DNA from: a virus
Strand: one strand, 5' to 3'
IMG/VR virus record: IMGVR_UViG_3300045988_137393
DNA: 64,000 bases
Shown: positions 1,427 through 54,077 of the stretch, one piece after another
Layout: each line of letters begins with the position of its first letter
Position numbering within the stretch: position 1 is the stretch's first letter
Position numbers and translations under genes: made by a program
Notes under the pieces: generated by a model
What the model was told of the DNA's origin: nothing
Seen by the model: only the letters and a program-made list of their open reading frames with translations
Databases searched by the model: none

Positions 1427-2323
1427 ATGAAAAAATTGAAGAGATTAAAGAGGATATTTAGTTTTGTGTTATGCATTGTAATGGTTATTACCGTTATTCA
1501 ATTAGTACCACAAAATGTTTATGCTGCCAATAAAGTTAAATTGAACTATACAAAGCTTACTTTGTATGTTGGCGAAGTAAAGAATTTGAAAATACATGAA
1601 GGAAAAACGGAAATATATTCTGCTAGATGGTCTTCTTCTAATAAAAATGTTGTGAAAGTTACTAATTATGGACATATAGAAGCATTAAAACATGGTTCTG
1701 TTAAAATAATCGCCAAATATAATAATAAAAATTATGTTTGTAAGGTTACTGTCAAGGATGCTTTAAAAGATCATGTAAGTTATGAGTTGATTGATATTCC
1801 TGAAAATGCATATTCGGGACAGTATAATAAAATGATTAAAATTGTAAACAATAATGATGTTACTGTTAATGTTAATATTTCTATTAAACAATACGATAAG
1901 GATGGATTTTATATTAGACAAAACACAAATGATTATATAGTAAATAAAAATACTTATATTATTGCATTAATGGAATATAATAATGGACGTGTAATAGATT
2001 TTAATAATCCAATACAATATGACGAACAGTTAAAGATATCTTTGAGAAGTGTAAATAGGGCAAATTCTATTGATATAAAATATAATATTTCTGATCAATA
2101 TATTGATAATGGTTGGATATATAGAGATATTGTTTTTACTTCACCTATTACTAAATCTGCAAAATATTCTGCGTTATGTTATAATAGTAGTGGAGAATTA
2201 ACGAGAATAGTTACCGATTATGTTTATGTTCCTGCTAATGAAAAAGTAAAAAAGAAAGATGGATATAATTTGAATTTTAAAGATAAATATGATATTCAAA
2301 AAATAAATATATATTTTTATTGA
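1427..2323 (+). CDS. secreted or membrane-anchored protein with bacterial Ig-like (Big_2) domain (298 aa)
   Basis: ATG 7 nt after AAAGGAGG. N-terminal signal/TM IFSFVLCIVMVITVIQLVPQNVYA. The segment KVKLNYTKLTLYVGEVKNLKI..WSSSNKNVVKVTNYGHIEALKHGSVKIIA matches the Big_2 pattern. Confidence 0.75.
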   Translation: MKKLKRLKRIFSFVLCIVMVITVIQLVPQNVYAANKVKLNYTKLTLYVGEVKNLKIHEGKTEIYSARWSSSNKNVVKVTNYGHIEALKHGSVKIIAKYNNKNYVCKVTVKDALKDHVSYELIDIPENAYSGQYNKMIKIVNNNDVTVNVNISIKQYDKDGFYIRQNTNDYIVNKNTYIIALMEYNNGRVIDFNNPIQYDEQLKISLRSVNRANSIDIKYNISDQYIDNGWIYRDIVFTSPITKSAKYSALCYNSSGELTRIVTDYVYVPANEKVKKKDGYNLNFKDKYDIQKINIYFY

Positions 2324-2340
2324 TCAAGTATTTGTTTATT

Positions 2341-2370
2341 GGACTATGGCTTTGGCTGTAGTCCTTTTTT
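2341..2370 (+). terminator. intrinsic terminator
   Basis: GGACTA..TAGTCC hairpin (2341-2364) followed by TTTTTT. Confidence 0.7.
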
Positions 2371-2429
2371 ATTGCTGTTTTATATATAGATATCTCTATT
2401 TAAAAGGTGATTTGTGATATGGTTTTAAT

Positions 2430-2760
2430 ATACCCCCCCTATAGGTTGAGATTCTTGAGTGTGGCTTTTGATGGAAAAATCGTTATCGGTGAAAACGCTT
2501 ATATATAAGGAAGAAAATAGGATTGTTGGTGTGATTTTTGGTAAGATAGAAGTTTGAAATTTAGGGGTTGAAGTGAGTGAAATGGTTGAAAAATAATGGT
2601 TTTGACGATATGGGGTACGATAAGTGGTTTGAGATGGTAAAATTGGGATTTTGCTTGATTTTGTTGGAAATTTTGATGATTGGGGAAGGATGGATTTTTG
2701 AGTTGGTGTATGGAATAACCAGCTATAGGGTTTACTGCATTTCCAGTCCATCTAATTAGT
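2430..2760. repeat. GT-rich degenerate iteron-like tract (GGTT(T)GA / GATTTTTG units)
   Basis: Repeated GGTTGAG, GGTTGAAG, GGTTGAAAA, GGTTTTGAC, GGTTTGAG, GATTTTTGG, GATTTTTGAG. The only ORFs here are low-complexity ones. Confidence 0.35.
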
Positions 2761-2780
2761 TTTAACTACCCCGGCTAGGC

Positions 2781-2820
2781 AAAAACAATGGATAATAGAT
2801 ATATATTATACATTGTTTTT
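2781..2820. repeat. 10-bp inverted repeat AAAAACAATG / CATTGTTTTT
   Basis: Arms at 2781-2790 and 2811-2820, with a 20-nt AT-rich loop. Confidence 0.7.
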
Positions 2821-3129
2821 CTGATCCGATTTTCACAACAAATAGTATTAAAAACTATGTGTAGTAGTAGTTATTGGTTCTATGACATATAGTTTAATAT
2901 TGTTATAATCCAATATAATCTTAATATCGTTTCCATTCACCACTTTTATATCAAAATCAATAATTTTTAGGTTCACATTCTCCACTTTATACCATAAAAC
3001 CTGTCTAAAAATGGGACAGTCCACCACCACACAAAACCAACCTATAATTCTATTGTTAAAATTTCACAATAACACACACCATAACCACACTAAAACTACA
3101 CATATTTCACAAAACTATAAAATCTTATG

Positions 3130-3800
3130 AAAAAGACTTGAATATCTCACAAAAAAGGACTATTATACAGTTGTCCGAAGGGATAGGACATAAAACAAGT
3201 CCCATTGTTAGCACATCTGTAAAGAGGACACCGAACCTCACTTGACATCATTAGTTAAGATAGAACCTATCCAAGAATGATGTAAAACCTCACGGCTACT
3301 TGTACAGCCATTCCAAAGCGGATTAAAAAAGCTATCATATATAGCAACGTACAGGGCACTTGATAGCAGTTATTAAGAGGTTGAATTGATACCTTAATGA
3401 AACAATTCAGTAAAGCCACACTATAGCAGGCACGTGAATAGTAGGAACGATAGAAACCTCATTAGTAGTCAAGTGGCTACTAATTACCATTCCGGCGATG
3501 TGTAACCGGCAAGACAGCAACTCATAAACGTATTAAATAATCTTTACAAGTGTATCACTTGTTTTGTGGTAAAAACATTAAATTACATAACAGGTTTATT
3601 ATACCACATTCAAAGAGGTTGTTTCAACCTAACAAGATTAAATAGTACAATACCGCTTTATATGTCAAGCGTTAAAAGTATGGCAATATGACATAAGTAT
3701 AGCAGGGTACGCAAGCTATACAGTGTAATTGTAAATTATTACAATAAGCACATTCCGCACATTACAATAATAAGCCACCAAGTAAACATGAAAAATGTTG
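3130..3800 (+). ncRNA. candidate large structured ncRNA (ROOL/GOLLD-like context); boundaries and strand uncertain
   Basis: ~0.7 kb without an ORF in a near gap-free genome. At least 8 stems of 6-8 bp: 3245-52/3276-83, 3461-68/3477-84, 3546-52/3556-62, 3616-21/3625-30, 3661-67/3689-95, 3697-3703/3715-21. Lies directly upstream of a tRNA-like element. Confidence 0.35.
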
Positions 3801-3808
3801 AATTATCC

Positions 3809-3896
3809 AGTCGCATTGAGCAGGCTCAGTCTACGCTTTTTTAAGCGGTTGTGAATTAAGCACATTTGAGAAGTGGTTCGATTCCACTTGCGACTT
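3809..3896 (+). ncRNA. tRNA-like element with perfect acceptor stem and T-arm but non-canonical core
   Basis: AGTCGCA/TGCGACT acceptor stem (7/7). T-arm AGTGG-TTCGATT-CCACT. The interior holds three hairpins: TGAG-cagg-CTCA, CGCTT-tttt-AAGCG and TGTG-AATTAAG-CACA. No standard anticodon arm and no CCA. Confidence 0.45.
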
Positions 3897-3950
3897 TACC
3901 AAAAAAATAATTATATTGCACTCATGCGTTAAATGAGAGAAGGAGACATT

Positions 3951-4748
3951 ATGTTAAAATCTGAAAAATTCTACTCAAAAACTAATTCTTTAAAGGACAC
4001 AACTTTCGACTTTGCAGGACACGTTAGAACTTTAGTTCGTAACACTGAATTATCACGGATGCAGGATAAAAAATCATTCAAGGATGGTAAAAAAGCATTA
4101 GAGGATGCACACGCTGATATTGACGTTATGACTTGTGACGCTAGTATTATCAATCAGACTTTAGGTAACGATGCAGGTCAATTCATCAAAGACCGTGAAG
4201 AGATTATTGCTTTAAAAGATGAAATTGCTACACTTTTACCGATTGACAACGTGACCGCACTTTGTCCAACTGACCGTGTACATATTACTTTGATGGCTCA
4301 TGCTATCTATAAAAATGTACAGCTGGATGCTGATATTTTCGACACTGAAAAAGGCGGTGTTGATATTTCTAAGGCAGTACAGGTTTACTATAACAAAGGT
4401 TCTATGAAAGACTTAAAAGATGCTTTACGTTCTGTATTTAATAAATTAATCGGTTCTGAAGGTGATCACTTCTACGGCATTAAAATAAAAAAGTCCGATT
4501 TTACAGATAAGGATCTGCGTAACTTCCTTGCAACTTTTGGCGGTTCTGCCAAACGTGAACAATCTAAGTCTAAGAAGGATGGAGTAGAAATTGTAAAATT
4601 TTCCGACTTTAACTATACAGACAAGTCAGGCAATAAAAAAGTACAGATTGCAGCTTTTACAACTCTTTGTGCAGTTGTTCTTGATAATGCGTCAAAACAT
4701 GAGGTTATTAAGCCGGAAACTACAGAAGAGAAAACCGAAACAAAATAG
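3951..4748 (+). CDS. hypothetical protein (265 aa) bracketed by tRNA-like elements
   Basis: ATG 5 nt after AGGAGA (3941-3946). The ORF-track start 3933 lies inside or before the SD. Confidence 0.75.
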   Translation: MLKSEKFYSKTNSLKDTTFDFAGHVRTLVRNTELSRMQDKKSFKDGKKALEDAHADIDVMTCDASIINQTLGNDAGQFIKDREEIIALKDEIATLLPIDNVTALCPTDRVHITLMAHAIYKNVQLDADIFDTEKGGVDISKAVQVYYNKGSMKDLKDALRSVFNKLIGSEGDHFYGIKIKKSDFTDKDLRNFLATFGGSAKREQSKSKKDGVEIVKFSDFNYTDKSGNKKVQIAAFTTLCAVVLDNASKHEVIKPETTEEKTETK

Positions 4749-4800
4749 GATGATACTGCATAAGTAGTAGGTGTGCAGGGTTCGACTCCCTGCTCATCCT
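4747..4800 (+). ncRNA. truncated tRNA-like element (acceptor + T-arm, 54 nt) / possible terminator
   Basis: AGGATGA/TCATCCT acceptor stem (7/7). GCAGGG-TTCGACT-CCCTGC T-arm. Only one short internal hairpin (TACTG-cataag-TAGTA). Overlaps the stop codon of the upstream CDS. Confidence 0.4.
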
Positions 4801-4859
4801 TTAACTTTTAAAGTGAAAAATTCAGGCTATAAGTATGCCCATTTTTAAGGAGGTTAATC

Positions 4860-5087
4860 ATGTTAAAGTTTAAAAAATCAGAAATTCATAAACTTGCAAA
4901 TCAGCTCACTTGTAACTCTGAACTTTTCGGGGATGAGGTTGCGTCTGTTATTGCACAACTTACATCACTGTCAAACTCTGCAAATGAGTTTGGTTGTACA
5001 ATGGAAGGTAAAATCTTTGATTGTTGGGGTTCTTCCGTTTCGGTAATTGCTTTACCTGATAAGGCAAAACATAGTTGGGAATTTTAG
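4860..5087 (+). CDS. hypothetical protein (75 aa)
   Basis: ATG 7 nt after AAGGAGG. Confidence 0.7.
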   Translation: MLKFKKSEIHKLANQLTCNSELFGDEVASVIAQLTSLSNSANEFGCTMEGKIFDCWGSSVSVIALPDKAKHSWEF

Positions 5088-28261: not shown

Positions 28262-29999
28262 CCTAAAATGAAAAATTAAACCTGTACTTTGACAACTGAA
28301 AATGGCTATAAAAGGTCTAGTTTACTTTTTCTACAGCCCTTTCCAAGGCATGATATATTGGTTATATCGATTACTATCTGCTGGGAAAGGAGCAGATATG
28401 AATTATTACAATGCTAGCGGACAAATGGATCTGTCAGATCGAATAGCAATAGAAACTGGGATATGCATCGGGGAGTCATTCAAAAAAATAGCAAAAAGAC
28501 TTCGCAGACATCCATCTACTATTGCACATGAAGTTAAAGAAAACAGAACCTTCATTAAAGGTAATTACCCGAATGGAAAAGATTGCCGCATGGCAAGACA
28601 ATTCACAGTAAGGAATTTGTGCGGCTGTGATGAAGAAGCCTGTAATACAAAGTGTAGACTTTGCAGAGGAGTGGATTGTACCAAGGTATGCGATAGATAT
28701 GTATCAGTTGCTTGCCATAAGTTTGATTCGCCTCCGTATGTTTGTAATAACTGTAAGGATAAAAAGCTTTGCAACAAAGATAAGTATATTTACAGTGCGA
28801 AATTCGCTGATGCAGCTGTAACTCGTCGTAGATCGGAGAGTCGACAAGGAGTTAGACTTTCTGATGAAAAGAAGGAAGAATTGGATGAACTTGTGACTCG
28901 ACTTGTTAAGAAAGGCCAGCCTTTAACACACATATATGCAGAACATGAAAATGAAATGCCAGTGTGTTTGAGAACACTTTATAACTATATCGATGAAGGT
29001 GCCTTATCTATTAAAAACATAGATTTAAGAAGAAAGACAGGCTACAAACCACGAAAGAAAAAGTACAACGATATCAATGGATTTCACTCAATGGAGTATA
29101 GACAGTGTAGGACATATGAGGATTTTGAGTATGCGATGAAATTCAAATATTCAGAAGATGAAGTAACAGAAATGGATACTGTAAAAGGCGTTAGAGAATC
29201 TGGAAAGCGTTTGCTTACAATGATCTTTAGAAAGAACAACGTAATGCTACTATTCCTGATGCCAGATGGAAAAGCAGAATCCGTAAAAAGGGTTCTGGAC
29301 TATCTCGAGACAGGATTGGGAATAGATGTTTTTAGACGGTTGTTTCCGGTTATATTAACTGACAACGGCAGCGAATTCAAGAAGGTAGATGAGTTAGAAC
29401 TTACGCTGGATGAGGATGGCTTCCTAGTTTATAGAACAAGCCTTTATTACTGTGATCCAATGGCTTCATGGCAAAAAGGGTGTATCGAGAAGAATCATGA
29501 ATTTATTCGTTATGCCGTGCCAAAAGGAAAAAGCTTAAACCCATACACGCAAGAAGATATGACTTTATTAATGAATCATATCAATAGTGTAAAACGTCCT
29601 GGACTTGGAAATAAAAGTCCATACGAGCTCGTAGAAGAGGATGATGAAGATTTCAAAGCATTAATGTCATTATTAAAAATGCACCTCATCCCGCCAGATG
29701 AAGTGCATTTAATGCCAGATTTATTCGTTAAAAAGTAATTAGACCGAAGCTGCAGATAGTAATCGATTTGTCAATAGGTATTAAATAGACGGGTCGCATT
29801 TACTTTTGCATAACAAGTAGCCAGCCGTCTGTTAATCATGCAAACAAATATATACCTGCTATCTGGAATGCCTTAATTATAGCATGATATTTGAATTTGA
29901 ACATCCATTATTAGGGCTTTATTTGACCTTTATTTGACCTCAGAACAGAATTTTGATTATTAGACGTATTTTCAGTTGGGTTTTAGTTTTTCATTCAAG
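28262..29999 (+). mobile_element. IS30-family insertion sequence (~1.74 kb)
   Basis: Imperfect terminal inverted repeats: IRL CCTAAAATGAAAAATTAAACC..CAACTGAAAAT (28262-28303) against the reverse complement of 29966-30000, CCTTGAATGAAAAACTAAAACC-CAACTGAAAATAC. One DDE transposase ORF. Flanked by 14-bp direct repeats. Confidence 0.85.
28398..29738 (+). CDS. IS30-family DDE transposase (446 aa)
   Basis: N-terminal HTH LSDRIAIETGICIGESFKKIAKRLRRHPSTIAHEVKEN. TDNGSEF and WQKGCIEKNHEFIRYAVPKGKSL match IS30 catalytic-region signatures. ATG 7 nt after AAAGGAG. Confidence 0.85.
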   Translation: MNYYNASGQMDLSDRIAIETGICIGESFKKIAKRLRRHPSTIAHEVKENRTFIKGNYPNGKDCRMARQFTVRNLCGCDEEACNTKCRLCRGVDCTKVCDRYVSVACHKFDSPPYVCNNCKDKKLCNKDKYIYSAKFADAAVTRRRSESRQGVRLSDEKKEELDELVTRLVKKGQPLTHIYAEHENEMPVCLRTLYNYIDEGALSIKNIDLRRKTGYKPRKKKYNDINGFHSMEYRQCRTYEDFEYAMKFKYSEDEVTEMDTVKGVRESGKRLLTMIFRKNNVMLLFLMPDGKAESVKRVLDYLETGLGIDVFRRLFPVILTDNGSEFKKVDELELTLDEDGFLVYRTSLYYCDPMASWQKGCIEKNHEFIRYAVPKGKSLNPYTQEDMTLLMNHINSVKRPGLGNKSPYELVEEDDEDFKALMSLLKMHLIPPDEVHLMPDLFVKK

Positions 30000-30266: not shown

Positions 30267-30339
30267 AGGGCATTCGCCAAGCGGAGAAGGCATTGCACTT
30301 TGATTGCAAAATTCATCAGTTCGAATCTGATATGCCCTG
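30267..30339 (+). tRNA. tRNA-Gln (anticodon UUG), no encoded CCA
   Basis: AGGGCAT-TC-GCCAAGCGGAGAAGGC-A-TTGCA-CTTTGAT-TGCAA-AATTC-ATCAG-TTCGAAT-CTGAT-ATGCCCT-G. The D-arm is near-identical to that of E. coli tRNA-Gln. Confidence 0.9.
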
Positions 30340-30498
30340 CTTTGTGACATTCCACCCGGTATGTTACAGAACGCAAGAGATTTCCTTGTAAGAGCAAAAT
30401 GTGTAGTTGCTAAAGTTCTACCATAGTTTAATCCACTAACGGATTACAAGCTGATACTATAGAACTTCCTGATAAACTTGCGATAGTGTCAGCTACTT

Positions 30499-30572
30499 GG
30501 ATCATTAGCACAATTGGTTAGTGCATTCGGCTCATAACCGAAAGGCTCAGAGTTCAAGTCTCTGATGATCCA
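30499..30572 (+). tRNA. tRNA with CAU anticodon (elongator Met or Ile2), no encoded CCA
   Basis: GGATCAT-TA-GCAC-AATTGGTTA-GTGC-A-TTCGG-CTCATAA-CCGAA-AGGCT-CAGAG-TTCAAGT-CTCTG-ATGATCC-A. Lacks the three G-C pairs of an initiator anticodon stem. Confidence 0.9.
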
Positions 30573-30597
30573 TTGCTAAATCAAACAAAGAGAGGAG

Positions 30598-41292: not shown

Positions 41293-42702
41293 ATGAAAAG
41301 ATTGAAAATTGAAATTCCATCTGGTGCAAATGAAATTATCCATAGTCTACAAAACAATGGATATGAAGCTTTCTTAGTTGGAGGGTGCGTAAGAGATAGT
41401 ATTCTTGGCAGAATAATTCACGATTATGACATTACAACTTCTGCCACACCAGATGAAATGATGGAAGTATTTAAGGATAAAAGAATTATTGAAACTGGAT
41501 TACAACATGGAACTATTACCATTATAATTGACGGTGAAGGATATGAATGTACCACTTACAGAATTGACGGTAATTACTCAGATAGTCGTAGACCTGATAG
41601 CATAACATTTACACGAAATCTTAAAGAAGATTTAAAGCGTAGAGATTTTACAATCAATGCGATGGCATACAATGATGAAGTTGGACTTGTAGATCCGTTT
41701 AATGGCATGGAAGATATTGAGCATTATAAAATCAGATGTGTTGGTAGAGCAGAGGATAGATTTTCAGAAGATGCTTTAAGGATTTTACGTGCTATTCGGT
41801 TTGCTTCACAACTGGGATTTGTCCTTGAACCTGATACAGATTGGAATATCTCTAAAATGTATAAGAATTTGGAGAATATATCTATTGAAAGGATCAATAG
41901 TGAGTTCTGTAAAATTGCTGCATCGAGTGATTTCTGTGTACAAATGGTCTTATATCACGAAGTATTCTCATTGTTCATTCCTGAAATTAAAGATATGTTT
42001 GGCTTTCAACAGAATAATCCATATCACATGTATGATGTATGGAATCATACCGTACATGCAGTACAAGCATATTCTTGTGATTGTGAAGAAGACTTAAATC
42101 CAATAGATTTAATTACGTCATTAGCGGTGTTCTTTCATGACATAGGAAAGCCACACTGTTATCAAGACGGTGAGGATGGCATTAGACATTTTAAAGGGCA
42201 TGGAAAAGTCAGTGCTGATATGACTGATACAATTATGAAAAGACTTCGTTTTGATAATGATACAAGAGAAAAAGTAGTGCAGCTTGTTTATTATCATGAT
42301 GCAACTTTTGAAGTGGGTGAAAAGTATATCAAGAGATGGCTCAATAAGATTGGAGAAGAACAATTTAGAAGATTACTGAATGTTCGTAGAGCTGATATTA
42401 AAGCGCAGGCTTATACAGAGCAAGAGAGTAGGCTTCAGAAAATTGACAATATCGAATATATCTTAGAGGAAGTTTTACAGAAAGACGAATGTTTCTCACT
42501 GAAAGATTTGGCTGTTAATGGCAATGATTTGATTGAGATTGGATATAAGCCAGGAAAAGAAATAGGGAATACACTGAATTGTCTTTTACAGTTAGTAATT
42601 GAAGGTGTATATCTAAACGAGAAAAGTGAGTTACTTAAATATGTTGAGACAACAAAAGAATGGATGAAGTTAGGAGAGAATTATAATGGTAAGATTATTT
42701 AG
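41293..42702 (+). CDS. cca: CCA-adding enzyme (class II tRNA nucleotidyltransferase with HD domain) (469 aa)
   Basis: GGCVRDSILGR, HDYDITT, EDLKRRDFTINAMAY, and the C-terminal HD motif FFHDIGKPH. Confidence 0.88.
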   Translation: MKRLKIEIPSGANEIIHSLQNNGYEAFLVGGCVRDSILGRIIHDYDITTSATPDEMMEVFKDKRIIETGLQHGTITIIIDGEGYECTTYRIDGNYSDSRRPDSITFTRNLKEDLKRRDFTINAMAYNDEVGLVDPFNGMEDIEHYKIRCVGRAEDRFSEDALRILRAIRFASQLGFVLEPDTDWNISKMYKNLENISIERINSEFCKIAASSDFCVQMVLYHEVFSLFIPEIKDMFGFQQNNPYHMYDVWNHTVHAVQAYSCDCEEDLNPIDLITSLAVFFHDIGKPHCYQDGEDGIRHFKGHGKVSADMTDTIMKRLRFDNDTREKVVQLVYYHDATFEVGEKYIKRWLNKIGEEQFRRLLNVRRADIKAQAYTEQESRLQKIDNIEYILEEVLQKDECFSLKDLAVNGNDLIEIGYKPGKEIGNTLNCLLQLVIEGVYLNEKSELLKYVETTKEWMKLGENYNGKII

Positions 42703-43609
42703 CCACAGTGATTTAGACGGAATCGGTTGTGCAGTTTTGGCAAAACTTGCATTTGGTAAAGATGTAGATATTTCATACTGTGATTACGACAATATTGATT
42801 CAACTGTAAAGGAATATTTGGAAACAGAACAGGACGACACAATCCCAATTTATATTACCGATATTCGTGTCAATGAAGAAACTGCTGAGTTGCTAAATAA
42901 AAGAGGCAATGTTCAGTTATTAGATCATCATCCAACAGCTCTTGGATTAAATAAGTATGATTGGTGTGATGTAGTTATCGAAGATTCCAAAGGAATTAAA
43001 ACATCGGGAACTATGTTGTTTTATCATTGGTTAGGTATGAATGGTAGCCTGAGTGAAGAGTTAGAGAATAATAATGCGTTAGAGAGATTTGCTGAATTAG
43101 TGAGAGATTATGACACTTGGAGATGGTCAGAACTTGGTGAAGATGGAGTTATTTGTAAGCAGGTGAACGATTTACTTTATCTGTATGGTCGAGATGATTT
43201 TATTCATTGGTGTATTTCGGAGATACGTGGTGAAATATTCCCATTGTTATCTGCTAAAGATGAGGTTGTTCTGAAGATTAAGCAGGATGAAATTGATAGA
43301 TATATCAAGGAGAAGAATGAAACCATGTTTACCAGTCCTATGTGTGGTAAGGTTTGTGGTTTTGTATTTGCAGATAGGTTTGTTAGTGAATTAGGTAATA
43401 GACTTTGTAAAATGCATCCTGAAATTGATTTTGTGGCAATGATTGATATTGATGGTTGTACGGTATCTTATAGAACCGTTAAAGAAGATATTGATCTTGG
43501 TAAAGATGTAGCAAGTTTATTTGGTGGCGGTGGTCATCCAAAAGCTGCTGGTTCAGAATTTGGTCAGAGTATTAAGTTGAAAATTATTGGGGAAATCTTT
43601 GGACAGTGA
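42686..43609 (+). CDS. DHH/DHHA1-family phosphoesterase (NrnA-like) (307 aa)
   Basis: SHSDLDGIGCA (motif I), ITDIR (II), LDHHP (III), GGGGHPKAAG (DHHA1). Overlaps cca by 17 nt. Confidence 0.8.
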   Translation: MVRLFSHSDLDGIGCAVLAKLAFGKDVDISYCDYDNIDSTVKEYLETEQDDTIPIYITDIRVNEETAELLNKRGNVQLLDHHPTALGLNKYDWCDVVIEDSKGIKTSGTMLFYHWLGMNGSLSEELENNNALERFAELVRDYDTWRWSELGEDGVICKQVNDLLYLYGRDDFIHWCISEIRGEIFPLLSAKDEVVLKIKQDEIDRYIKEKNETMFTSPMCGKVCGFVFADRFVSELGNRLCKMHPEIDFVAMIDIDGCTVSYRTVKEDIDLGKDVASLFGGGGHPKAAGSEFGQSIKLKIIGEIFGQ

Positions 43610-52019: not shown

Positions 52020-53183
52020 ATGGCAGAAAGAGCATTAGCACATGTAGAAAAGATTGAGTGGATCAGACCGATTGAAGGAGCTGATAATATTGAACTTATT
52101 GGAGTTTTAGGGTGGGTTTGTATCGCTAAGAAGGGTGAGTTTAATGTAGGAGATATGGCTGTTTATATTGAAATTGACAGCAAGTGTCCTGAAACAGATG
52201 AGAGGTTTGCATTTTTGGCAAATAAGAAATTCAAAGTTAAAACTATGAAACTTGGCAAGTTCAAGGTAATTAGCCAGGGATTAGCCCTACCATTATCACT
52301 TTTCCCAGAATTACAGGATAGAAATATTGGTGATGATGTTACAGAAGCTTTGAAGATTACATATGCTTCTGAAGAAGATGCTGCAAGAAAGACCAATAAG
52401 GTTGATCCAAATGCTAAATATAAGTTAATGGCAAAGCGTAGACCAAAGTTATTTGCTAACCCAATTGTAAGAAGGATTATGAGATACAGCATTGGTCGTA
52501 AGATTATGTTTTTATTGTTTGGTCGCAAGAAAGATAATCCAAAGAAGTTCCCAGATTGGATTGTCAAAACAGATGAGACGAGAATTGAGAATGCACCATT
52601 TTATCTTCAGAGTACCGAAAAGTGGATTAAGACTGAGAAATGCGATGGTACAAGCTGCACATTTGCAGTTGATAGATTGAAGAAGGACAAGAACAAATTT
52701 GATTTTATTGTATGCAGTAGAAATGTAAGACAGGCTGATAGAGAACAGGCTTGTTATCACGAGTCAAATATTTATTGGGAATTGGCTGACAAATATGACA
52801 TTGAAAAGATTCTTACACAGTTTGCAACAGAGAATAATTATAACAGAGTTGTGTTACAAGGTGAAGGAGTTGGCTTAGTTCATGGCAATCCATATAAATT
52901 TACGGAGAATAAGTTATTTGTATTCAATCTGATTATTGATGGTACAAGACTTGGAACTGTAGAAATGGCTGATTTCTGTAAGAGTCATGGATTAACAAGT
53001 GTGCCAATTATTGATACGGCTTATGAGTTACCTAAGACTATGGAAGAAATGAAACTTGAAGCTGATGGATATAGTGAATTAAATCCAAAGGTTAAGAGAG
53101 AGGGGTTTGTATATCGCAGTATTAATGGTCAGCAGAGTTTTAAAAATGTAAGCCGAGAGTATTTATTAAAACACAACGGATAG
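52020..53183 (+). CDS. ATP-dependent RNA ligase, Rnl5-like (DraRnl/NgrRnl type) (387 aa)
   Basis: N-terminal OB-like module VEKIEWIRPIEGADNIELIGVLGWVCIAKKGEFNVGDMAVYIEIDS. Nucleotidyltransferase motif I EKCDGTS, then LQGEGVG and SFKNVS (motifs IV/V type). Confidence 0.75.
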   Translation: MAERALAHVEKIEWIRPIEGADNIELIGVLGWVCIAKKGEFNVGDMAVYIEIDSKCPETDERFAFLANKKFKVKTMKLGKFKVISQGLALPLSLFPELQDRNIGDDVTEALKITYASEEDAARKTNKVDPNAKYKLMAKRRPKLFANPIVRRIMRYSIGRKIMFLLFGRKKDNPKKFPDWIVKTDETRIENAPFYLQSTEKWIKTEKCDGTSCTFAVDRLKKDKNKFDFIVCSRNVRQADREQACYHESNIYWELADKYDIEKILTQFATENNYNRVVLQGEGVGLVHGNPYKFTENKLFVFNLIIDGTRLGTVEMADFCKSHGLTSVPIIDTAYELPKTMEEMKLEADGYSELNPKVKREGFVYRSINGQQSFKNVSREYLLKHNG

Positions 53184-53192
53184 GAGTTATTT

Positions 53193-54077
53193 ATGAATAA
53201 ACCTACATTGTATATCATGTGCGGTTTGAGTGGTAGTGGCAAGTCAACTATTGCCGCTCAGATTGCCAATGAGAATCCAAATACAATAATCGTATCATCA
53301 GACGCAATTCGTGAAGAATTGACTGGTAATTACGAAGACCAAGAACATAATGAAGAAGTATTTAAAATTTTTCACAATAGAATCCGCAAGAATTTAGAGA
53401 ATAAAAAGAATGTAATTGCAGACGCAACTAACCTGACTATGAAATCTCGTAGAGCAATTATGATGAAAGTAAATTGGTTAAATATCAGAAAAGTGTGTGT
53501 AATTATACCAAAGCCGTTTGAACAGTGTAAAGAAGATAATTTACATAGAGAACACCCTGTACCTGACTTTGTGTTGGATAAGCAGATTAGAAAATTCCAG
53601 ATTCCGTTCTATGAGGAAGGATTCGATGAGATTATCATTCATAATTTATTAAATAATTATGAACCAAATGATATTCCAGATATAAGAGGATTTGACCAGA
53701 AAAACCCACATCACACAATGGATTTATTTGAACACTGTAAATATGCATCGAGATTATTTTGTACAAAATATTCTTATCCTGCAAGATTCAGAATAGGTGC
53801 TTTGTATCATGATTTAGGCAAATTGAGTACACAAACATTTGATGAAAATGGAATAGCTCATTATTATCAGCATCATTGTTATGGTTCATACCAATATATG
53901 ACAGCTATGTATCATGTTGATTCTGATGTTGTTTTAGATACATGTTTCCTTATCAATTATCATATGATGCCTTTTAATTGGGATACTGATAAAGCAAAAC
54001 AGCGTTGGAAAGAAAGGTTTGGAGAATACAAATACAAGATGCTTTTAGATTTTAATGAATGTGATAGAGCGAGGTAG
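53193..54077 (+). CDS. bifunctional polynucleotide 5'-kinase (P-loop) / HD-domain phosphoesterase (Pnk-HD) (294 aa)
   Basis: Walker A CGLSGSGKST plus SSDAIRE (T4 Pnk-like). C-terminal HHTMDLFEH ... YHDLGK HD motifs. Confidence 0.7.
   Translation: MNKPTLYIMCGLSGSGKSTIAAQIANENPNTIIVSSDAIREELTGNYEDQEHNEEVFKIFHNRIRKNLENKKNVIADATNLTMKSRRAIMMKVNWLNIRKVCVIIPKPFEQCKEDNLHREHPVPDFVLDKQIRKFQIPFYEEGFDEIIIHNLLNNYEPNDIPDIRGFDQKNPHHTMDLFEHCKYASRLFCTKYSYPARFRIGALYHDLGKLSTQTFDENGIAHYYQHHCYGSYQYMTAMYHVDSDVVLDTCFLINYHMMPFNWDTDKAKQRWKERFGEYKYKMLLDFNECDRAR

Follow-up and report, generated by a model that had tools for sequence, protein, structure and literature searches.

The stretch considered here is a window of 64,000 nucleotides (nt) from a large, uncultured phage (IMG/VR virus record IMGVR_UViG_3300045988_137393). 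On comparative evidence, positions 3172-3808 of its plus strand are predicted to be a previously undescribed, clade-specific, large structured non-coding RNA locus. The fold is supported by compensatory changes in the 5' part of this RNA (domain A), while the 3' part (domain B) runs up to a tRNA-like element, beyond which lies a conserved gene, here called gene X (Table 1). A first-pass annotation of the window had suspected a large multi-helix non-coding RNA, possibly a new one, beside a tRNA-like element in a phage genome. This central suspicion is borne out, with the additions that the RNA is predicted to lie on the plus strand and to be pseudoknotted. The accompanying suggestion that it might be a member or relative of the ROOL or GOLLD RNAs finds no support, as Rfam gave no match to them in the window or in 11 relatives, nor at E<=10 in three divergent versions of the locus. 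We tentatively favour the reading that this structured RNA is stable, processed and trans-acting, a functional analogue of ROOL, GOLLD and the abundant early long non-coding RNA of phage K.

Comparative evidence for a structured RNA

Relatives of the locus were retrieved with the gene X protein, which yielded 32 IMG/VR loci and 38 metagenome loci, and were grouped by the part of the region that they conserve. Group A keeps 3050-3932, and group B keeps 3205-3932 at about 78% identity. In group C, 3183-3514 is replaced, while in distant groups about 3349-3435 and the tRNA-like element alone are kept.

The fold of domain A is based on an alignment (A7) of 21 distinct homologues of 3170-3570, analysed with RNAalifold and an explicit count of pairs. 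The consensus proposes 76 pairs in 16 helices, and 97.7% of the cells are paired across the homologues. Both partners have changed in 43 of the 76 pairs, versus 27.8±2.4 in column shuffles, none of which reached 43 in 500 trials. When the partners were instead slid by 1-3 columns, 2-9 pairs changed on both sides. The covariation score of domain A was 0.423 versus 0.172. Covariation in homologous regions from relatives, which the first-pass annotation had proposed as a check, thus supports the structure. The signal is also specific to one strand. There are 88 G·U cells in domain A versus 15 A·C cells (57 versus 14 among minority states), an excess which indicates that the plus strand is the folded, selected strand. 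Read on the minus strand, the same fold pairs 93.0% of the cells, and on both counts a folded minus-strand RNA is disfavoured.

The starting observation of the annotation, that 3031-3808 holds no open reading frame (ORF) of 60 or more amino acids (aa) on either strand, agrees with the list of ORFs. The gene-poor stretch is wider than had been claimed, covering about 2324-3950, and the few ORFs within it are composition artefacts that fall in A-poor sequence. Variable sites are spread evenly over codon positions in 3173-3565 (57/60/60, p=0.95) and show no periodicity in 3566-3808 (22/27/17), compared with 50/22/164 (p=6e-32) in the adjacent coding sequence at 3951-4745. The lack of codon periodicity rules out a protein-coding reading. 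Folding of the single sequence is less telling. Over 3031-3808, the plus strand gave z=-3.4 (20 shuffles) and the minus strand z=-2.4; over 3173-3565, z was -2.1, and 5 of 100 shuffles folded equally well. With z-scores this modest, hairpin density alone is not convincing, and it is the comparative evidence that decides.

The stems that had been listed from the window sequence fared unevenly in this comparison. Those at 3461-68/3477-84 and 3546-52/3556-62 agree with the covariation-supported consensus, and that at 3697-3703/3715-21 is backed by two covarying pairs. The predicted consensus includes the stem at 3616-21/3625-30, although it hardly varies and has one compensated pair; the stem at 3661-67/3689-95 is invariant among homologues, so that no covariation signal is possible. 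Homologues do not conserve the stem at 3245-52/3276-83, with two of its pairs present in only 7/21 and 10/21 of them, and it is replaced by two smaller covarying hairpins (3241-46/3254-59 and 3268-71/3279-82). The pseudoknot-like pairs noted around 3375-3412 proved to be a real H-type pseudoknot, in which 3378-3381/3391-3394 interleaves with the hairpin 3382-88/3403-09. Structure had been claimed for the whole stretch; the support is strong for 3173-3565, but 3566-3808 is conserved in sequence with little covariation.

The pseudoknot forms part of a core motif, which sits in the sole stretch of domain A (about 3349-3435) that nhmmer recognises in distant relatives. Its first pair is A-U, C-G or G-C depending on the lineage (alignment A5). 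A 23-base pattern of the core matched 19 times in IMG/VR, each time on a contig of this clade, and never in GTDB genomes. A 17-base motif, GCAACT(N)ATAAACGTATT, was discarded as a probe because its matches outside the clade were mostly due to chance. Loops and linkers of domain A are invariant while the stems vary, examples in alignment A7 being ACACCGAA, AGNAGUU and GAAAC. Invariant loops on covarying stems are typically seen in RNAs that make tertiary or protein contacts, and the pattern suggests such contacts here. Two small 5' hairpins directly after the promoter P1 covary between groups, and an ACCGAAC motif recurs across every divergent group. The invariant hairpin loops ACACCGAA (3228-3235) and (A/U)UGUGUAA (3496-3505) hold complementary ACAC and GUGU. 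A loop-loop contact could form between these two invariant loops.

The pseudoknot and the strand signal also bear on a different view of the region, namely that it is an array of independent short elements (promoters, operators, terminators and small RNAs) or of single-stranded-DNA hairpins, such as a packaging or initiation site. Three Watson-Crick pairs at one pseudoknot position and the G·U excess point to RNA folding rather than to such an array. Most helices are local, at 3-8 base pairs (bp), and mosaic exchange reaches down to single hairpins, as an array would have it; however, the helices follow one another at continuous density, with invariant linkers, between one conserved promoter and one terminal hairpin. 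An array would also suit the survival in distant groups of the core and the tRNA-like element only, and the contigs of several distant relatives that end inside the region, but repeats of the kind typical of pac or cos sites or of iterons were not found within 3172-3808. On balance, we consider this explanation improbable.

Table 1. Positions of the features discussed, in the window unless another locus is named
Feature	Position	Strand	Description
AT-rich palindrome	2781-2820	.	40 bp; inverted repeat I2 with 20-nt arms, 90% complementary, no spacer; centre of the control region
Sigma-70-type promoter (near consensus)	2882-2909	+	ATGACA-16-TATAAT, preceded by TG; score 12; consensus match only
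Two direct repeats	2929-2988	+	CATTC(A/T)CCACTTT(T)ATA; repeat D6; position of the perfect DnaA boxes TTATCCACA of relatives
C/A-only spacer	2990-3137	+	GC skew -0.67; small inverted repeat 3051-3056/3066-3071
Promoter P1	3138-3166	+	TTGAAT-17-TATTAT; sigma-A-type; predicted start near 3172
Domain A of the structured RNA	3172-3565	+	16 helices and a pseudoknot; covariation
Possible closing helix	3178-81/3542-45	+	one-sided changes only
Exchangeable middle cassette	3183-3514	+	type 1 in the window
Core motif	3359-3409	+	hairpin 3359-65/3371-77 (loop AGNAGUU) and H-type pseudoknot 3378-81/3391-94 interleaved with 3382-88/3403-09
Terminal hairpin	3546-3570	+	ACAAGUG-UAU-CACUUGU, then UUUUGUGGU; weak terminator-like site
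Domain B	3566-3808	+	94-100% identity in groups A and C; hairpins 3616-30 and 3697-3721
Minus-strand promoter	3627→3598	-	near-consensus TTGAAA-18-TGgTATAAT with extended -10; points into domain A; predicted start near 3591
tRNA-like element	3809-3896	+	7-bp acceptor, short D-like hairpin, U-rich hairpin in place of the anticodon arm, long variable arm, canonical T arm; no encoded CCA
Gene X	3951-4748	+	conserved 265-aa protein; always downstream of the RNA and tRNA-like element
Second, reduced tRNA-like element	4748-4800	+	about 53 nt; 7-bp acceptor, one short hairpin, canonical T arm; directly after the gene X stop codon
Left-flank accessory examples	L001 3383-4360; L010 3213-4271; L007 3643-4500		

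Extent of the RNA and its 3' part

The RNA is shorter than the 3031-3808 first delimited. The first ~140 nt (3031-3170) are promoter- and origin-like control DNA, comprising part of the C/A-only spacer and a conserved promoter, and not RNA, which leaves about 3172-3808 for the RNA. The promoter, P1, consists of GACTTGNAA, about 17 nt, and then TATTAT or TATAAT, and is kept in groups A, C and D (alignment A2); an equivalent is also present in two divergent loci, L021 and L029. A start near 3172 would follow from the conserved position of P1 and the covarying 5' hairpins right after it.

Domain A, the well-supported part, ends with the hairpin 3546-3562, which covaries, group D included. No U-tract follows this hairpin in group D, which argues for read-through. 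Domain B, beyond it, is at least as conserved as the neighbouring coding sequence in an identity profile.

The tRNA-like elements and gene X

The tRNA-like element that had been noted at 3809 is real, as indicated by ARAGORN, covariation and a covariance model. In the window, ARAGORN reports it as 'tRNA-???' with a 2-base 'anticodon'; in L031, it calls the element tRNA-Lys(UUU). The Rfam tRNA model (RF00005) gave no match to 3809-3896 at E<=10, and the element does not combine a 7-nt anticodon loop with a canonical D loop; its acceptor and T arms are canonical. Among 16 diverse sequences, covariation was seen in 12 of 17 pairs, including 7/7 in the acceptor and 3/5 in the T stem. The pseudo-anticodon loop is U-rich and 4-8 nt long across relatives, and the variable arm is either long or deleted. 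A covariance model of the element (R1) identifies a single copy in the window, at 3808-3899, ruling out further copies there. Further afield, it has matches upstream of gene X in loci where the protein is only 44-52% identical. The U-rich pseudo-anticodon loop, together with the tRNA-repair genes of the phage, raises the idea that the element might serve as a decoy for anticodon nucleases.

The second, reduced element means that gene X is bracketed by tRNA-like elements on both sides. Its T stem compensates in three pairs, and compensation in its acceptor (GGATGA/TCATCC, GGATAA/TTATCC and GGTATAG/CTATACC) was recognised by eye in alignment A11. Both tRNA-like elements may be processing signals for RNase P or RNase Z.

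The gene X protein has no sequence match in Pfam, PHROG or PDB. Its AlphaFold2 model is confident (predicted local distance difference test, pLDDT, 88.8), has no fold match in PDB, and resembles only two uncharacterised viral proteins. Homologues form 80 clusters, down to 38% identity, none of them named, and 8 of these clusters were retrieved. All of the distant gene X loci examined have 850-1860 nt of gene-free DNA upstream, and one of these gene-free regions folds with z=-3.1. Together with the tRNA-like copies, this gene-free DNA suggests a module, made up of the RNA region, a (reduced) tRNA-like element and gene X, that predates what can still be aligned of the RNA sequence.

Since the RNA always precedes gene X, and every gene called between 3951 and the window's end lies on the plus strand, the RNA could be a cis-acting 5' leader of a rightward early operon. 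It would then be a processive antiterminator, or a processing or stability element, for gene X and more than 60 kb of co-directional genes, with the tRNA-like elements at 3809 and 4748 as RNase P/Z punctuation excising the gene X mRNA. Known antiterminator RNAs are small, at about 70 nt for HK022 put and about 120 nt for EAR, and an RNA of 640 nt with at least 16 helices is far above this range. The position of tRNA-like elements on both sides of gene X and the weak terminator-like hairpins in the path of transcription suit a leader. Exchangeable cassettes, however, would be unexpected in an element that touches the host RNA polymerase, and there is no riboswitch-like expression platform beside the ribosome-binding site at 3940. 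A leader function is therefore improbable.

Upstream control region, antisense promoter and exchangeable cassettes

A replication origin had been named from the outset as an alternative identity for the region. This finds support for the DNA immediately upstream of the RNA, where relatives carry clusters of DnaA boxes, although the boxes are degenerate in the window. Two to three perfect DnaA boxes (TTATCCACA) lie upstream of P1 in 16/32 IMG/VR and 13/38 metagenome loci. The clusters are all on the plus strand, 130-200 bp upstream of P1, and include further near-perfect boxes (e.g. L001 4932-4992); DnaA boxes occur almost nowhere else in these loci. In the window, no DnaA box with at most one mismatch was found in 2300-3200. 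The two direct repeats that occupy the position of the boxes have both been changed alike, to TTC(A/T)CCACT, which hints at a changed binding specificity and not at random decay.

To the left of these repeats, the AT-rich palindrome is conserved in relatives, as a self-match in reverse, and inverted DnaA-like boxes (TGTGGATGA) lie on its left side. Base composition is mirrored round this AT-rich centre: a G/T-rich block at 2400-2760, with almost no A or C on the plus strand, a GC skew of up to +0.9 and conserved sequence islands, stands against C/A-rich DNA at about 2990-3130, and the GC skew flips sharply between them. By composition, transcripts running out of the centre would be C/A-rich and those running into it G/U-rich. 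The G/T-rich block (2440-2780) was also considered as a mirror-image structured RNA, which was ruled out by a consensus of -8 kcal/mol with 5/32 pairs compensated. The promoter at 2882-2909 has a -35 element that is not kept in all relatives.

A minus-strand promoter comparable to that within domain B was detected at the equivalent place in 8 of 10 divergent loci scanned (L001, L014, L021, L025, L029, L031, L103 and L107), with a -10 box that does not vary in 19 of 20 distinct sequences. P1 and this antisense promoter are convergent and both conserved across groups, as consensus matches only. No conserved minus-strand terminator was found.

The middle part of the RNA comes in two versions. The type 2 cassette, about 125 nt longer than type 1 and barely alignable to it, swaps with type 1 between near-identical flanks. 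One locus (L074) is a hybrid of the cassette types, and mosaicism reaches single hairpins. Type 2 has a structure of its own, both partners having changed in 17 pairs among 6 sequences. RNAs of type 1 are found both with and without perfect DnaA boxes.

According to one explanation of these features, 2780-3600 is a replication origin or early control region with an origin-linked sense/antisense control RNA, similar to those of ColE1 or phage c2. The minus transcript from 3627→3598 would run to the AT-rich DnaA-box centre and would be G/U-rich over 3130-2990 on a C-rich template, favouring an R-loop. The plus-strand RNA from P1, complementary to the first ~420 nt of the minus transcript and ending ~20 nt from its start, would be its regulatory partner or itself the origin transcript, and each cassette type would represent a specificity group, for incompatibility or immunity. 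Perfect and near-perfect DnaA boxes upstream of P1 in ~29 relatives and the inverted boxes left of the palindrome fit this explanation, yet the window and its closest relatives have kept the RNA without a DnaA box at <=1 mismatch. The convergent, conserved promoters fit it as well, but no conserved terminator of the minus strand accompanies them, and the G·U excess reflects selection on the plus-strand RNA fold only. Discrete types exchanged between near-identical flanks have a precedent in Ceduovirus (PMC7150918); within a type, however, it is the loops that are invariant and the stems that vary, the opposite of loop-determined antisense specificity. Divergent genes in most relatives, the sharp GC-skew flip, and the ParB-like, Cro/CI-type helix-turn-helix (HTH) and integrase genes downstream are also as expected of an origin. 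The leftward neighbours, on the other hand, are variable accessory genes (DUF3825, RelA/SpoT, P22 Ant-N and HTH) with no rep gene, and a replication initiator at that position is ruled out; nor is a tRNA-like 3' neighbour a feature of known origin RNAs. We regard the origin-linked explanation as possible but rather unlikely. It and a trans-acting RNA are not mutually exclusive.

Comparison with known RNAs and origins

Rfam was scanned at the gathering score on the window and 11 relatives, which returned no family, and at E<=10 with lax filters on the window (2200-5000 and 3150-3900), L001 and L021. The ROOL (RF03087) and GOLLD (RF01998) models had no match at E<=10 on these three divergent locus versions. 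Readings as ROOL, GOLLD, tRNA, tmRNA, RNase P, riboswitch or ribozyme were ruled out, with chance-level snoRNA and CRISPR-repeat matches only.

ROOL and GOLLD are large, phage-borne non-coding RNAs found near tRNA genes, the function of ROOL being unknown (PMC5737381), and both form homo-oligomeric RNA-only cages (PMC12286853). The RNA described here is likewise large, multi-helix, pseudoknotted, phage-borne and adjacent to a tRNA-type element, which in this case is tRNA-like. It differs from ROOL in architecture, as ROOL has six junctions and three pseudoknots, whereas the consensus here has 16 mostly local helices, one pseudoknot, one unsupported closing helix and no supported multistem junction. 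ROOL also spans three bacterial phyla, while this RNA is known from one gut-phage clade. It has the phage and tRNA association in common with GOLLD, one half of which is variable between members, but is smaller and has no match to the model. The RNA would thus appear to resemble ROOL and GOLLD in kind, being large, structured, phage-borne and tRNA-adjacent, but to belong to neither family.

In phage K (Kayvirus), the long non-coding RNAs lnc001 and lnc002 are made from an early promoter of their own, adjoin tRNA genes and are very abundant, lnc001 being the top transcript (PMC9241854). Phage K lnc001 and lnc002 resemble the RNA described here as long non-coding RNAs of a large Firmicute phage beside tRNA genes. 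They share no sequence similarity with it (blastn against 50,697 phage records), and no conserved structure has been reported for them. In the c4 RNA of P1/P7, the CI RNA of P4 and MALAT1-mascRNA, an adjoining tRNA-like structure is an RNase P cleavage signal that makes the RNA end. The element here differs in its long variable arm and U-rich pseudo-anticodon loop, and its cleavage is inferred.

In lactococcal Ceduovirus (c2-type) phages, the origin is non-coding DNA that separates divergent modules and has two promoters at its flanks; it exists in three types, with >90% identity within types and none between them, and replicates plasmids without phage proteins (PMC7150918). The locus described here is similarly non-coding and promoter-flanked, with discrete types and divergent modules, but in the window the left neighbour is on the plus strand. 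The two c2 promoters both point to early genes, whereas those here are convergent, and no DnaA boxes or tRNA-like element are described for the Ceduovirus origin, unlike this locus. In ColE1, RNA II heads to the origin, and the folded opposite-strand RNA I overlaps its 5' part by 108 nt. The likeness here lies in the overlapping sense and antisense promoters, P1 and 3627→3598 (consensus matches only), in a folded RNA that would end near the start of the opposite transcript, and in a G-rich RNA on a C-rich template before the origin. As to a putative downstream origin, relatives carry DnaA clusters and the AT-rich palindrome, but the boxes are degenerate in the window. The differences from ColE1 are an overlap of ~400 nt, a fold selected on one strand, loops that are conserved and not type-specific, and a ~165-kb phage replicon.

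A proposed mode of action

If the RNA is indeed stable, processed and trans-acting, transcription from P1 would read through the weak hairpin at 3546-3570, and RNase P would cut at the 5' edge of the tRNA-like element (3808/3809), freeing a stable ~640-nt RNA. Stable RNAs co-transcribed with tRNAs are matured by such RNase P cleavage. The folded RNA would act in trans at an early stage of infection, serving as a scaffold with tertiary structure or as a protein partner, and its level or activity would probably be modulated by the conserved convergent minus-strand transcript.

This proposal draws on several lines of evidence. Domain A and its pseudoknot covary, as does the type 2 cassette, and both the 88:15 G·U excess and the T loop of the tRNA-like element are strand-specific. 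There is no codon signal, conservation is at least that of coding sequence, and P1 is conserved. Invariant loops with covarying stems are unlike a bare antisense target. The tRNA-like element is kept beside the RNA down to ~44% gene X identity, and gene-free DNA of 850-1860 nt lies upstream of gene X at all distant loci examined. The phage also encodes a CCA-adding enzyme, an RNA ligase and a polynucleotide kinase, and precedents exist in ROOL and GOLLD (PMC5737381) and in phage K lnc001 (PMC9241854).

Several points weigh against a processed, trans-acting RNA. The start of the RNA, its end and the RNase P cleavage are all inferred. The terminator-like hairpin with its U-tract may end the RNA at ~400 nt in the lineage of the window. 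Domain B, the link between domain A and the tRNA-like element, has a covariation term of +0.37 and 5/47 compensated pairs. Short hairpins in a row make up most of the domain A consensus and no multistem junction is supported, so that the fold is less ornate than those of ROOL and GOLLD, and the single-sequence z-scores are modest (-3.4 and -2.1). Finally, such an RNA does not predict the strong, conserved antisense promoter, the DnaA cluster of relatives or the cassette types, all of which suit a replication or early-control RNA better.

A broader reading, which we put forward as doubtful, combines these elements into a new RNA class. Here, a tRNA-like 3' module would set the end of an RNA whose swappable central domain has at least two structural versions, and the RNA would be tied to a convergent antisense promoter and to the novel-fold gene X protein. 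The whole would be an RNA-centred early control or ribonucleoprotein system at the origin region of a widespread clade of ~165-kb gut phages.

Large, intricate RNAs of bacteria and phages are rare, and each new class (OLE, GOLLD, ROOL and raiA) has opened new biology, such as RNA-only cages. The locus combines a fold that has good support (both partners changed in 43 pairs of a 390-nt domain) with a defined promoter, a neighbouring tRNA-like element and a conserved antisense promoter, and its two interchangeable middle domains amount to a natural experiment. It adjoins an apparent DnaA-dependent origin in abundant, uncultured human-gut phages. Within a narrow phylogenetic range, it therefore provides a handle on the use of structured RNA early in large-phage infection, and on the links of ROOL/GOLLD-type RNAs to replication or tRNA biology.

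Source phage, clade and genomic context

The RNA family appears to be restricted to one clade of human-gut phages with genomes of about 165 kb. Metagenome loci with descriptive record names are human-gut assemblies. In one contig of 327 kb (OCSG01000004.1; L072/L073), the locus is present twice, 163,563 bp apart, which suggests a concatemeric assembly of a ~164-kb genome. Protein- and RNA-pattern scans with the gene X protein and the RNA core motif gave 0 matches in representative genomes of 185,579 bacterial and archaeal species, and blastn and tblastn gave no match among 50,697 deposited phage records. Ribosome-binding sites are strong and of the AGGAGG type, which suggests a Firmicute-like host; a P-type ATPase used as a query returned distant matches only and no host clue.

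PHROG and Pfam matches in the window include a tRNA nucleotidyltransferase, RNA ligase, polynucleotide kinase, DHH phosphoesterase, integrase, ParB-like protein and Cro/CI-type HTH protein. A tRNA-repair-type set (CCA-adding enzyme at 41293-42702, DHH phosphoesterase, RNA ligase and polynucleotide kinase) lies at 41293-43609 and 52020-54077.

The 1-2 kb to the left of the non-coding region form a hypervariable minus-strand accessory island in relatives, with DUF3825, a RelA/SpoT-like synthetase, the P22 antirepressor N-domain (P22 Ant-N) and HTH proteins (Table 1). In the window, its place is taken by a plus-strand Ig-like (Big_2) protein at 1421-2323 with its own terminator (2341-2364). Gene orientation diverges at the non-coding region in most relatives but not in the window.

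Some distant relatives show further arrangements. Going upstream from gene X, the contigs of four distant homologues (L115-L118) break off after 840-1260 nt, still within the non-coding region; in L119, a cut 43-aa ORF alone lies between the region and the contig end. Such ends may be physical ends of the genome, or the assembly may have broken there because of the mosaic variability. In another distant relative, the non-coding region is directly adjoined on its left by a gene (L120 620-802) with a precomputed match to PF10723 (RepB-RCR_reg), which we take to be a replication-regulatory ribbon-helix-helix family and which would fit a replication-control region.

Elsewhere in the window, a 478-aa transposase-like ORF (28302-29738; phrog_4646, E=1.7e-63), for which Rfam identified no associated guide-RNA family, lies just upstream of tRNA-Gln (30267-30340) and tRNA-Met (30498-30573). 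These are the only two canonical tRNA genes of the window.

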